From: a plasmid
Direction: 5' to 3' (one strand)
Assembly: GCF_057098645.1 (NCBI RefSeq)
Contig: NZ_JBXSPU010000002.1
Length of the DNA stretch: 64,000 nucleotides
The position numbers are program-made. Shown in pieces: positions 1-6,000 of this stretch. Numbering within the stretch: the first letter of the stretch is position 1; each line of letters starts with the position of its first letter.

Positions 1-3000
1 TAGCTCATAGGACATAGCCAGTGCCGTCAATGCTTCTTCGGCTTCCTGAAGCGATTTAATGGCCGTTTGGCGCATCTCTGTGCGGTGTTCAATCATGGTA
101 ATGTTTGTCCTCGTTGCACAGTTCCTTTTAGATGCAAGCTCAACGCCTGCATTAAAATTCATGCCGTCTTTTTTGGCTTCGGTGGCTCGCTGGGAGGCGA
201 TATGGTCGGTAATCTGCGGGTGCCTTCGATTACAGCCGTATCATTTGTGGTCTGCCGGGAAAGCTTCATCGGATACTCCTTTGCCCGGAGCCGCCGGGGC
301 GGGGGGGTGTTCACACCTTGTGTTTGCTGCAACGGCATTTTTTCAGGCAACCGGGAAAGTAACTTTTTCGACATATTCCTGCTTTATGTACCCGCTTTTC
401 ACACTAAAGTGAAATTTGCCCTCCTTAGCGAGAATTTAAAACGGACGGATCGCGTACTATAACCCCCGGAAAAAAAGTTACTTTTTTTTCGCCTCAGGTT
501 ATTAGGAAATGAATCGAACCTGGTATTGTTGTTTTGTAGCGAACAAACACCCTAAACGAAAACTAAAAGGAAGGCACCATGTCCACTGTCGAAAATGATG
601 TAAAAACCGCTAACAACGATATCAGCCTGCGCACCTACCTGGAGCGTACCGGTAACGGCGCACGCAAAAGCAATGGTCTAGTCATTAACCCGGCAGTGGT
701 CGAAGAGGAAGAGGGGTTTAACACCCGTACTGCTGGCATTGGGGAGAGTTACTACTCATTACCTGACGTGGTAGCCCACCTGAACAGCCTGAAAGAGTCC
801 TACAAGATCGATCCTTTAAGCGTACAAGCTATTGTCGTACAGATTCTGAATGGCCGTCCGGTCCTGCGCCAGGGAGCATGCCGTATCCGTGCCGTCGCGA
901 TGGCAAACATCGAGCTGGCAGATGAAGGGCGTGAATTGATCACGTTAATTCGATGCGAGGAGTTTCGCGGTAGCCGCGCCAGTGCCGAGCAGTTTACGCT
1001 GGACGGTAACTCAAATCTGGCTCTGTCTGTCGTAGCTGAGGCGCTCTCCATCAAACGGATGGTTGAAGACGCGGAAGAACCCAAAACGTTCGCTGAACTG
1101 GCGAAGCGTCGCGGTAAAACCGAACAGCACCTGCGTCAGATGGTTCGCGTCCTGGATCTGCCTGAAGCCCTCCAGGCCATGTTGGTGAAGGGTGAAGTGA
1201 GTATGTATGTCGCGCTGGATGAATACCTTTACAGCGGCGATGAAGCGGTCAACAACATCACCAAAGCCATTGATGTTTATGGTAAGGCGACGGCCAAAAC
1301 CCTGAAATTCGTCAAAGCTGGCAACATTGATGCAGCGATGAAGCCGAAAGCAGCCATCGTGCCGGACGCAAATGCGACCCCCCCGGAAACCACCGTGACT
1401 GAACAAACGTCCGGCGAAGGTACTAACGATGAGACCACCCCACCGCAGCTGGTGGACGGGAGTGCGGGCACTAACCCGGAGCCGACCCCGGAAAGGACCC
1501 CGGCACCGCAGATGAAAGACCCGGTCAAAACGCCAGAGCCTAAAGCTGTGTCGGTCTCCAGCGTACTGAACAAAAAGACCGTGACGACGATTGCGGACAC
1601 GGCAATCCCGCTGTTTTCGCGTATTGCGGAAGAAGCTAAACAACGGGCCGCTAAGAACCTCAGCGACGATACTTACACTCTGGTGCTGACCAATGACGAG
1701 ATGAATGCCATTTGTAAAGCTCACGGCGATCTGACGCAGTACCTGCGTAAACATGCTGAAAAGCAGAACAAGGGCCAGGCATGATTTCCTGACTGACCCC
1801 GCCACCCGGTAGGGTCGGTTACCACCACTGGTCAAGGAGAAACAGGGCAATGAAGAATACCGCAATCAACATCAGCACGAAGAAACCATTGCAGACAGTT
1901 AAGGACCCGGTGACCCGGGTCAGCATTCATTGTACGGCTAAGGATGAGAAGGGCGCAGACGTGGAAGTAAATATTCTCGACCTGGAACAGCACCACACCA
2001 CCAACGAAATCAAATTGACGTTTGGCGGTTCCCCTTCCCAGGCGCTGACAATGCTCAGCAGAGTGATGGTCGTGCTGCAACAGCAGGCGGCCGAAGAACT
2101 GCAACGGAATTCCTGCTCCCGTTTGCAGTGAACACCGAAAGGAGCAATGGCACGACGTTATGGATAGAACATGGATTTATAATTTTAAAGGACTCAGTGC
2201 TGGCACTAATTATGTTAAAGCGATTAATCTCTGCGAGTGAATGTGTAGCTACTAGAATTTGTTGGTCTGGCAAAAAACTCCCTAAAAACGCACCACCTAT
2301 GGAAGCTAGTTAATAAAATCTGCTACCTATTTACATAATTCCACATGCGTCCAATTTTTAAGATTGTCGGTTAATTTAAAAAATTTTCAGTGTAGGTTAT
2401 TAGCCAGCAGCCCGGGTTTTATATAATACCAAAAACATAGGAGGTATTATGAAAACCAATCTGGCTTATGCATCTAATTGTTCTGACTCTCTTTACTCCT
2501 TTATTTATCCTGCACTGCAACAACGCTCTGGAACCGAGAATGAAAGTCTCTATCAGCAGGCTATTTCCGCCTGCCATACTCCGAAATAAAAAATGAAAAT
2601 GGGCGGTTACTACGCTGGCCCCTGGCAGATGCTGTTTAACGCATGGTGTCACAACCGTGTACCCAACATTGCCGTACTGCCGGTATTGGCCCAGCAGTGT
2701 TTCTCCTCTTTGCAATGCGAAGAGCTGATCGCCAACTGGCACTAATCACATTATGCCCTGCTGGTGGATACTGGCAGGACTGGAGCACCTATAAATGTAT
2801 AAATATGACAGGAACCGGCAGACGTTCAACTTGATCAATGCGCTTCAGCCGGTCTATCGCAACAATGGTGGCGGTTTGTTTGAGTTCGACCGCAGGAAGC
2901 AACATGAAACAGCAGATCTGATCTTCGAGGCACTGACTTTCTCCCCAACGCCCGAACTGGAGCTGGCGAAATTTGTCCGTCTCAAATCGGTGCGCCGGAT

Positions 3001-6000
3001 TGCACAGTTTGATGACGGGGAAGTACGTTATGGGGTTCACGTGGAACTAGACGAAGCTGTTAATATTAATTCCTTCCGCATTTTTAAGGATGATAATACA
3101 GGCGGGTTTGATTTTTATTTGTTTTCTGTTTTAGGTAATAATGCAGAGCTTGTCCAGATTAATCTGGATGCCAGCAATATTCATTTGCAGGACATTTTTG
3201 AACGGTCTACCGGTTTGTGTTTGTCCTACTGATGAATTTATTAAATATTTCACATCAGGTTGTTAGCCACGAGGCTGAATATGAAATAATAAGAAAAACA
3301 ATGAGGTGAAATATGAAAACTTTAAATATTCAGGTTAATGACATCGCAGCAATTAGCGCACTTGGCGGCTCAATGTTGGCGGATATTATCGCCGCGCAAT
3401 ATAAAGTGATTGATGATACCAAAGACGCATCTGAAATGGCCATGCCGTGCATTGCTTACGGGCAGATCCCCGCAAACATCGGCCCGGGCGTCTTTATCAA
3501 TCGCGTGTACAGCATGGACAGCCAGTCACTGAGTGCCAGCCAGCGTTACGAGCTCTTTAACGGACTTGCAACCCAGGCGTTTACCTTCTTTTTCCAGTCG
3601 GGCTGGTATGGCGCATTCCGTGTTGTGTCTTTCCGTGATAACGGTCCTGCCGGACTCCTTAATATCGGCATTGTCCATGACAAGGTGTTAAACGAATTTT
3701 GCGATGATTTTCCACGGGCTAATGTCAGCGAAACTGGCTTCAACTGCGGCATGACGTTTGACCAGATCCGGATGTTTATTTCGGACCTGGCCTATCAGAT
3801 GCCTTTGTACAACAACCAAGACCACTTCGTTAAACTCGCCAAACACCTCGCGGCCTGACACCCCTAGCCAGGCTCCGGCCTGGCGATTATGAAGGAAATT
3901 CTTATGAGCGATTTATTCAGCAGCGAATCACCGGTAACACTGGCTCAGGCACGCACTGTCGCCGCTGGGTACCAGAACGTCTTTATCGAAAACCTCCAGC
4001 CAGCAGGCCATTTCCAGATTGTCATCCGTGATCATCGCGACCACGACAGCCAGCTGGTCTGGCGAAACTGGAATTATGAATCCGGTGCCAATGATGCGCT
4101 CAATAGCTACCTGCAAAGCCATGGGCTGAAGGCCAGTTGATTAGCACAAGAACCCGGTAACACCGGGTTTCTTTTTTGTGGGCTCAGCACTCAGAGCTGG
4201 CATACGGAAAAAGGATCATTGGGCTGTCCGGGGCCCGCAGCTGGTGGTGTAAGCCTGGCCTCATGCAGATGGTTTAGCCGGGGGCGGTGATGATGCTGGG
4301 AACTAAAAAGAGATCTGGCATCCGGAAAGAAATCTTCGGTACCTCATGGCCTGCGTGGTGGATATGTCTGGCTGACGACTGCGGTGTCGTCTGTGACGGA
4401 CTCGCTCCATAATAATTTGCGGTCGGGAGAAAAGGGGCGTGTTAACAAAATTTAAGAACAAGGGACTTTAATATAAATACCGAGTCCATTAACGATGACG
4501 CACAGGAGTTTTGTGATGTTACTCAATATTGCATTAATCCTCTATGTTGCTGTTTGTCTTTACCTCTGTCTCCGTAATAAAAAGGCACTTTACCGTTTCC
4601 AGGGCGGAGGGCGTCAGTTTACGCAGTCCAGTAAGAGTGGAGCGAACACAGGCGAAAGTGGTTTCTTCTTAATCTCCGGCTACTCAGACACTGGCGTTGG
4701 GGGCGACAGTGGGGACGCTGGTGGCGGATGTGGGGGCGGTGGTGATTGATACAGGGTGCAGGCACCCGATTGTCGGGGGGCTATCGACAGGGGGTAAAGT
4801 TGACGGATTTTTTCGTAATGGTTTTGCGTCCGTGGTTCTGGCTGGTGGATGGTGAAGTCAGAGGATCTGGTTTTAATCAAGACGGATAGAAAGTAACTTT
4901 ACGGAATCTGTCATACGCAACCGGAAAGAAAATCTCACGCAGGGCAGCAAAGGCACGCCAGAGTGGATTTGCAGATTCGGACGGGAAAGCCTATTTTTCA
5001 TGCACTGAACCTATTTGGGCTGGAACGGAACCTGGTATAGTAGACTCATACAAAGGAGGGCATATGAATACTTTTCTTTACGTGCTGGTGGGCTGGATTA
5101 TCGTTCTATATCTGGTTAATAAAGTCCGCGAAAAGTACAGCAAACCGAAAACAGTTAATATCCTAGTGAAACGCAATGGCGTTTATCAAGAAGTGGAAGC
5201 CGTAGTGATGCCTCGAAGCCATAATAGCGATGTGGGTACAGGTAAGACCGGCAATGAAGCCGCCCCACAATGGTTGAATAAAGAGGATGATATTTCTGAA
5301 CTGGAGTACTACAGTGGCGGGTCACTCTTGAAGGCTGCAAGAGATTTTGAAGCTCAACAAATGGAGCAAAAATTCTAGCCACACTATCAGTGTCCACGAT
5401 TGGGAACTGATCGTGAAACCCTTTACTTTCAGATTCAATAAAGTCGGATGCGAGGAGTTGATTAATGACAACGGCAAACGTAACCACCACTATTTACCGT
5501 TCCGATGACATCGTGCCTTTTCGTCGGCCGCAGGGAGATCTGGATAATCGCTATATGCCGCAGGCTTACGCTCTGGTGCGGAGCTGGGCCAGCAAACCTG
5601 CGGAGTACGGTGCAGGAGTTCTGGCTACCTACAGACAGCCGGTAGTCAATCTCGGGTATAAGATAAAAGGGACTCGCGTTGTTTTAATTCTTGTCCCTAT
5701 CGAATGTGAGCCGGTTGGCGTAAAAATGACTGACGCCGCTTTATGGCCGTCTCTATCGATTGGGGAGGCCATGCGAATTATGCAGGAAGCGTGGCAAAAT
5801 ATTCCGGAGTTGAATCCATAAAAAACCCCGCATTTGCAGGGTTTTTTTTTACTTTGCCGATCTGAACATTTTACTCAGTATAAGCCGAGAAAAGCGCAAA
5901 AGGTTATAGGTAATACGCTGCTCCAGCCGCATGGTTGTTTTGTATCGAGTGGTAACGTTGTGGATATGGTTCAAATCAGTATAAAGGCCCGGAGGCTTTC

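Follow-up and report, generated by a model that had tools for sequence, protein, structure and literature searches.

A conserved, predicted operon of small genes facing the relaxase operon of an R27-type IncHI1 plasmid

In plasmid F, the leading region carries ssb, a DUF905 gene, a ParB-like gene, psiB and hok, all transcribed toward the transfer origin (oriT), and an IncK plasmid is organised likewise. Leading-region genes are those within approximately 30 open reading frames (ORFs) of oriT on whichever side is first into the recipient (Samuel et al. 2024, PMC11541004), and DUF905 proteins are often encoded near psiB/psiA (PMC12826799). For systems with a MobI-type oriT and a MOBH1 relaxase, marker mobilisation with MGIVchHai6 showed that transfer 'progresses downstream of mobI', and SXT mobilises DNA 3' of prfC (PMC7449626). 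Here we analyse a run of small plus-strand genes behind a ParB-like gene in a 64,000-nucleotide stretch of plasmid DNA, hereafter the window (NCBI RefSeq assembly GCF_057098645.1, contig NZ_JBXSPU010000002.1), and compare it with these systems.

Bases 1800-4300 of the window match, at 100% identity, more than 200 complete plasmids from Escherichia, Salmonella, Klebsiella and other Enterobacterales, among them pYPE10-190k-tetX4, which is typed IncHI1A, MOBH and MPF_F. R27, the prototype IncHI1 plasmid, has the same gene order and is identical to an 81-nt probe from the region. Judged by these matches, the window plasmid is an IncHI1 plasmid of R27 type. We find that window positions 2396-4180 very probably constitute one operon of the IncHI backbone, made up of a promoter, orf98, orf145, an internal promoter, orf181, a DUF905 gene and a terminator. 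The fuller explanation that we favour, in which this operon enters the recipient early and has an accessory role in the new transconjugant, is in our judgement evenly balanced between right and wrong. RefSeq records of the identical plasmids annotate all five ORFs of the run as coding sequences (four as 'hypothetical protein', one as 'DUF905 family protein'), and literature searches by protein accessions, R27 ORF numbers, the sequence of the promoter box described below and the IncHI leading region returned nothing relevant. The operon is real and conserved, already annotated but uncharacterised; modestly new are the diagnosis of a split gene, a module orf98-orf145-orf181 restricted to IncHI, a promoter box shared by several operons and the proposal that the relaxase operon enters first, with the array of small genes behind it.

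The operon and its shared promoter box

A preliminary description of the window placed five co-directional ORFs behind the ParB-like gene, at 2449-2589 (46 aa), 2593-2745 (50 aa), 2795-3232 (145 aa), 3313-3858 (181 aa) and 3889-4140 (83 aa). All five lie at these positions and are RefSeq coding sequences, and both the ratio of non-synonymous to synonymous substitution (dN/dS) and the conserved gene order bear them out. Three details need correction, however. The two smallest ORFs, taken for separate genes, share a frame and align end to end with one 98-aa gene of relatives (orf98). A near-consensus Shine-Dalgarno (SD) sequence had been ascribed to each of them, but only the first has one (AGGAGG, 2439-2444, plus strand), which is conserved in relatives. 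Finally, the last ORF, thought like the others to have no recognisable motif, matches DUF905 (PF06006) and YkfF. Between the run and the ParB-like gene there is one more gene, orf93 (1850-2131), for a protein of 93 aa.

Values of dN/dS were calculated by the Nei-Gojobori method against orthologues, including those of IncHI1B and IncHI2 plasmids. Against the IncHI1B/IncHI2 orthologues they ranged from 0.09 to 0.30 across the run, with 0.10-0.13 for orf98 (each half at ~0.1), 0.11-0.17 for orf145, 0.13 for orf181 (versus the IncHI1B plasmid L002) and 0.30 for the DUF905 gene; the ParB-like gene and orf93 gave 0.12-0.17 and 0.19-0.20, respectively. Synonymous sites are near saturation versus IncHI2, start codons and SD sequences are conserved among relatives, and the order 98-145-181 is kept in IncHI1, IncHI1B, IncHI2 and distant metagenomic relatives. 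By these comparative measures the run consists of real genes under purifying selection.

The operon opens with a promoter-like element at 2396-2427 (plus strand), in which a box, GTTATTAGCCAG, is followed by 14 nt and TATAAT. The box contains a -35-like TTAGCC located 16 nt from the -10 hexamer, i.e. at the -35 position, and the element is the sole match in the window to TATTAGC-N14-20-TATAAT. Both GTTATTAGCCAG and TATAAT are invariant in six relatives, while the spacer, the flanks and even the upstream gene diverge. A second copy of the box, GTTGTTAGCCAC, followed by 14 nt and AATAAT (3259-3290, plus strand), lies upstream of orf181; a box is present between orf145 and orf181 in all six relatives, with the exact GTTATTAGCCAG sequence in L008, L009 and L010. 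At the other end, an intrinsic terminator (4150-4180, plus strand) consisting of a nine-pair GC-rich stem and then CTTTTTTGTG is found 10 nt past the DUF905 stop codon; a search against Rfam gave sub-threshold noise only. The interval between orf93 and the promoter (2132-2395) is a variable slot, empty and AT-rich in the window and occupied in relatives by genes for a 221-aa membrane protein (pK29), a 92-aa protein (L004) or proteins of 64 and 114 aa (L009), or by IS1 (L014 and L015).

Scanning R27 (180 kb) yielded four exact copies of the 12-mer box, against ~0.02 expected by our own calculation, plus two degenerate copies. The six sites are at R27 positions 63083 (minus strand), 64749, 67256, 84155, 94687 and 95550, the first three of which correspond to L019:18184, 19850 and 22357; in L001 a copy lies at 2077 (window -5124). 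In every R27 copy a -10 hexamer follows after exactly 14 nt, the upstream sequence is A/T-rich, and an SD and ATG come within ~50 nt, such that the same element with fixed spacing stands before several operons near oriT. Genes behind these boxes include a DUF957-DUF3085 pair and an operon with a HigB-type toxin. One site is kept in a Pseudocitrobacter plasmid contig, where the spacer has changed and the box has not. When 100,044 species genomes were scanned for the box together with a -10 hexamer, 29 matches, of which only one is a real homologue, were obtained versus ~35 expected (our own estimate); the box is therefore not a general chromosomal promoter motif. No description of it was found in the literature examined. 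Because the weak -35 match lies within a 12-mer that does not vary, the box may be where a regulator encoded by the plasmid acts.

The proteins encoded by orf145 (2795-3232, plus strand; 145 aa, pI 5.2) and orf181 (3313-3858, plus strand; 181 aa, pI 5.0, with a strong SD GAGGTGA) each belong to an IncHI-restricted family. Among 5.8 billion proteins, 19 clusters were found for orf181, 22 for orf145 and 25 for orf98, and an orf181 profile run against 1.84 billion representatives retrieved 15 proteins only. Three of these were traced to contigs, with the same neighbourhood each time. On the longer contigs (L009 and L011) the operon is convergent with genes for NERD, S49 peptidase, TraJ (DUF4400), the type IV coupling protein (T4CP) and the MOBH relaxase. 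Homologues of orf145 (E 6e-14), orf181 and orf118 are retained on L011, the most distant contig, which has a weak DUF3846-like protein in place of orf98. As orf145 and orf181 persist side by side even there, the two travel together. On the evidence of these searches, orf98, orf145 and orf181 form tiny families confined to IncHI-like plasmids, where their order is always the same and they always face the relaxase-operon end. Sequence and profile searches of Pfam, NCBIfam, PHROGs, PADLOC and PDB returned no match for any of the three. The core proteins are mildly acidic (pI ~5), without the extreme acidity of DNA mimics, have no obvious membrane segments and look cytoplasmic. AlphaFold2 models made from the shallow family alignments are unreliable (pLDDT 38 for orf181 and 52.7 for orf145).

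In contrast, the last gene (3904-4140, plus strand; 78 aa) clearly belongs to the DUF905/UPF0401 family. Its product scores 60.2 bits against PF06006 (cutoff 22.3, E 2e-16), matches E. coli YkfF, for which a structure has been solved (PDB 2hjj), with E 3e-11, and shares 35% identity with F's leading-region DUF905 protein (E 8e-15). Starting instead from the ATG at 3889 would give 83 aa, but ATG 3904 is the probable start, since it is the RefSeq start and is preceded by AAGGA. DUF905 is absent from this position in IncHI2, leaving 98-145-181 as the conserved core.

The interrupted orf98 gene and other broken alleles

The two smallest ORFs of the run correspond to one 98-codon (297-nt) gene, orf98 (2449-2745, plus strand), interrupted by TAA at 2587-2589. 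Codon 47 is TAA in the window and CAA (Gln47) in all full-length orthologues compared, Gln47 being conserved in ten out of ten full-length homologues. At the DNA level the window aligns with five orthologues across all 98 codons; the in-frame TAA thus occupies a sense codon of the orthologues, with both flanks alignable. A single 98-codon gene is present in IncHI1B (L002), in IncHI2 (L003 and L004), in metagenomic relatives (L008 and L009) and in a minority of IncHI1 plasmids (L005 and L014-L016), the intact IncHI1 allele being WP_000856245. From these alignments, the 46-aa and 50-aa ORFs are the halves of one gene cut by a nonsense mutation, CAA to TAA, and two 'hypothetical proteins' in ~200 RefSeq plasmid records are to be corrected to fragments of one gene.

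The 81-nt probe spans the stop site, and 197 of 218 plasmid records (about 90% of close relatives), R27 among them, match it exactly. The remaining 21 differ from it: by one base in the five listed, while the error-rich assembly L017 has 96.4% identity. All four of the one-base-different records that were inspected carry an intact orf98. Given the identity in 197 records and the intact one-base variants, the stop is a real, widespread allele as opposed to a sequencing error. The sequence upstream of the 50-aa ORF, ccgaaataaaaaATG (written ccgaaaTAAaaaATG for the same stretch), holds no purine-rich stretch and no SD. Its ATG at 2593 corresponds to Met49 of the intact IncHI1 allele, and hence pre-existed and was not created to rescue the second half. 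Lacking an SD, the C-terminal remnant could be made only by reinitiation.

A second type of broken allele affects orf181. Both L005 and L016 lack one A of GCAAAC (window 3474), which splits orf181 into ORFs of 72 and 114 aa; orf98 is intact in these plasmids, the reverse of the state in the window. In L014 and L015 orf98 and orf181 are both intact, and no broken allele of orf145 was seen among the records inspected. The broken alleles point to relaxed selection within IncHI1 or else to a function that only some hosts require. Transfer does not depend on orf98, since its stop allele is carried by R27, the standard self-transmissible IncHI1 plasmid.

Entry order and possible role

The operon converges on a DNA-transfer operon (5849-15859, minus strand) comprising mobI, orf240, traI (MOBH), T4CP, orf368, traJ (DUF4400) and genes for an S49 peptidase and a NERD protein. 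The MobI-family gene, which stands at the head of this operon in R27, matches PF19456 with E 6e-22, and the NERD and DUF4400 domains were also matched. Between mobI and the next plus-strand gene lies a 730-bp gap (15860-16589) with by far the strongest single-stranded DNA (ssDNA) folding in the 25 kb scanned. It contains an inverted-repeat array, CATAGGGTCACTTTT / AAAAGTGACCCTATG, at 16119-16292, with dense inverted and direct CATAGGGTCACTTTT copies. This structure and these repeats are consistent with the R27 oriT, which is reported to adjoin a mobI-like gene directly (PMC10838148). The small-gene operon is found on the mobI/relaxase side of oriT, at a distance of 11.7-13.4 kb; its five ORFs rank 11-15 from oriT, and it points toward oriT. 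It belongs to a long co-directional array of ~30 backbone genes (R27 64.8-98.1 kb), all on the plus strand toward oriT, which also encodes Hok, the ParB-like protein and DUF905. Transcription toward oriT is the orientation seen in F; whether the transferred strand also serves as template depends on the polarity of transfer, which we infer.

We consider it moderately probable, by analogy, that the genes of the operon enter the recipient early, because a MobI-type oriT transfers mobI first (PMC7449626). Transfer of the MobI/MOBH1 type would proceed from oriT through mobI, making the relaxase operon, and then the array, the first DNA into the recipient. The transferred strand would be the minus strand of the window, from which the relaxase operon, although first in, would be unreadable. 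Next to enter would be orf118, orf104, DUF905, orf181, orf145 and orf98 (rank 9-15 from oriT), for which the transferred strand would be the template. Expression would then come from an ordinary double-stranded promoter after complementary-strand synthesis, and not from an F-type ssDNA promoter; complementary-strand synthesis would have to come first because no large ssDNA hairpin lies upstream of the operon. The operon would form part of a co-regulated accessory set, with the box before at least five other operon starts in the array, and this set would act in the new transconjugant through establishment, host modulation or counter-defence. For transfer itself the operon genes would be dispensable, in line with the stop allele of R27.

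Position, orientation and neighbours thus fit genes that act on plasmid entry into a new cell, and, given mobI-first transfer, the proposal of the preliminary description, an anti-defence or establishment role argued from position, is to this extent reasonable. Its functional part finds no direct support: the proteins match no known family of that kind, no F-type ssDNA promoter is present, the structure models are too poor to use and naturally broken alleles are common. We regard an establishment or anti-defence role as possible but somewhat doubtful.

Several observations weigh against early entry and such a role. Under the usual convention, with the relaxase in the lagging region (Samuel et al. 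2024, PMC11541004), the cluster would be the last to enter. None of the literature examined gives a polarity of transfer for IncHI itself, and between the cluster and oriT lie 10 kb of transfer genes on the opposite strand. The promoter is a prediction from sequence. A 300-nt sliding DNA fold revealed no Frpo-like, F-type ssDNA promoter hairpin on either strand and no peak near 2132-2448, with only the oriT and hok regions structured. The minus strand of the upstream intergenic stretch folds at -21.3 kcal/mol, worse than shuffled sequence (z = +1.49), where the threshold for an ssDNA promoter hairpin from pESBL is below -75 kcal/mol. The operon proteins have no homology to any known anti-restriction, anti-CRISPR, SOS-inhibitor, SSB, methylase or defence family, and Pfam, NCBIfam, PHROGs and PDB contained no match to the anti-defence genes typical of leading regions (Ard, Klc, Acr, PsiB, SSB and orphan methylases). 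Size and the ParB-like and DUF905 neighbours had raised the idea that orf145 and orf181 might be divergent PsiB/PsiA proteins, which was rejected by hhalign: orf145 compared with PsiB (PF06290) gave a probability of 0.2%, and had no Pfam match at E <= 1. Nonsense and frameshift alleles are, moreover, frequent within IncHI1, and selection on these genes would seem not to be strong within that lineage.

Other explanations place the function elsewhere. The operon could be cargo for steady-state maintenance or host modulation, such as cost compensation, a stress response or an addiction-type pair, in which case entry order would be irrelevant. The promoter does resemble the ordinary double-stranded sigma-70 type, a Hok gene is a neighbour and a HigB-type toxin stands under the same box, and the ParB-like leading protein of F reprograms host transcription (PMC13370423). 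However, no toxin, antitoxin or regulator domain was detected in Pfam, NCBIfam or PADLOC, mildly acidic proteins of these sizes are atypical for toxin-antitoxin pairs, and both orientation and gene content match leading regions; we consider this explanation unlikely. Alternatively, the genes may work in the donor, where they would help to process DNA for conjugation or control that process, as accessory factors of the relaxosome or as regulators, which would explain their place by the end of the mobI-traI-T4CP-traJ operon, and even in the most distant relative orf145, orf181 and orf118 adjoin the NERD-S49-traJ-T4CP-traI block. Yet they are convergent with the transfer operon, appear to have their own promoter and terminator and would not share a transcript with it. 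The orf98 stop does not prevent transfer of R27, orf181 is frameshifted in some plasmids, and no similarity to known relaxosome proteins was found in Pfam or NCBIfam, leaving a role in the donor quite unlikely.

That the operon is decaying and non-functional in IncHI1, its ORFs being relics on the way to pseudogenes, is suggested by the nonsense allele of orf98 in 197 of 218 records, by the 1-nt deletion that splits orf181 in others and by the IS1 inserted just upstream in some plasmids. It is nonetheless very unlikely in view of dN/dS values of ~0.1-0.2 across IncHI1, IncHI1B and IncHI2, the conservation of promoter, SD and gene order at synonymous saturation, the persistence of fully intact IncHI1 alleles and an orf145 that is unbroken throughout the records inspected. 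The idea that the frames are open by chance and hold no genes, which has nothing in its favour except small size and the lack of database names, is refuted by the comparisons made here (purifying selection acting on the frame as annotated, conserved SD sequences and start codons, and conserved synteny).

An operon that enters early and acts in the new transconjugant remains the explanation we favour. A bolder version of it, in which the GTTATTAGCCAG box would define an IncHI-specific early regulon of at least six operons under a plasmid factor, possibly orf98, with orf145/orf181 as a new two-protein protective or establishing module and the orf98 stop as an adaptive regulatory change and not decay, strikes us as improbable. 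IncHI plasmids carry mcr, tet(X4) and the multidrug resistance of typhoid. Should the inferred polarity hold, the relaxase operon would be delivered first, followed by a ~35-kb array of small uncharacterised genes, with several operons sharing one box. Three concrete and cheap targets for establishment and counter-defence assays follow: the box, orf145 together with orf181, and orf98 in its intact and stop forms.

Neighbouring genes and comparison with described systems

Upstream of the operon and co-directional with it are the ParB-like gene (579-1784, plus strand; 401 aa) and orf93, which are conserved in IncHI1B, IncHI2 and L009. The ParB-like protein matches the ParB helix-turn-helix (HTH) family PF17762 with 25.5 bits (cutoff 22.6) and the ParB-like PHROG 1033 with E 9e-18. 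TIGR00180 aligns with its HTH part only and scores below cutoff, Pfam gave no N-terminal ParB/Srx CTP-binding (ParBc-type) domain at E <= 1, and BLASTP could not align it with YfjB/HerB of the F leading region. Further upstream, just left of the first base of the window, is a gene for a Hok-family toxin with a strongly structured region (L001:6806-6925, window -395 to -276, and window 1-578); its location parallels hok/flm in the F leading region.

Downstream, at 4495-4749, there is an 84-aa ORF whose product begins with a hydrophobic helix and ends in an acidic tail rich in glycine (GGDSGDAGGGCGGGGD); R27 has it annotated, as 77 aa, and pYPE10 does not. Between the converging orf118 and NERD genes, a hairpin with an A-run and a T-run at 5821-5850 looks like a bidirectional terminator; it was absent from the output of the scan and is overlapped by weak sub-threshold Rfam matches (RsmY, Leu leader). 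The genes for the NERD nuclease-related protein and the S49 peptidase (5849-7760, minus strand), an unusual pairing, form the tail of the transfer operon in every IncHI-like relative seen.

Among described systems, the F/I-complex leading region (ssb, DUF905/yfjA, ParB-like yfjB/herB, psiB, psiA, hok/flm) resembles the IncHI array in its co-directional small genes toward oriT, with Hok, ParB-HTH and DUF905 proteins in both. The IncHI array differs in having no ssb, psiB, psiA or ardA, and orf98, orf145 and orf181 have no counterpart in the F/I-complex leading region. Unlike in F, there is no Frpo-type ssDNA promoter, and a 10-kb relaxase operon stands between the array and oriT. The one clear family link, that of the last gene to DUF905/UPF0401 (YkfF, 2hjj), explains nothing mechanistic. 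On the transfer side, the MobI-dependent oriT of MOBH1 elements (IncC, SXT/R391, MGIVchHai6) lies, as here, just upstream of a MobI-family gene and is accompanied by a MOBH relaxase, a DUF4400 TraJ and a T4CP. R27 departs from the IncC/SXT MobI systems in being MOBH11 as opposed to MOBH12, and in having mobI fused into the relaxase operon. Finally, CUP (conserved upstream) promoter repeats were reportedly described by Delver and Belogurov in 1997 from the IncN (pKM101/R46) leading region. The two elements have no sequence relation, the CUP repeat being several hundred bp long while the IncHI box spans 12 bp and occupies the -35 position. In both cases, however, one promoter element is said or seen to precede several operons next to oriT, which suggests common control.

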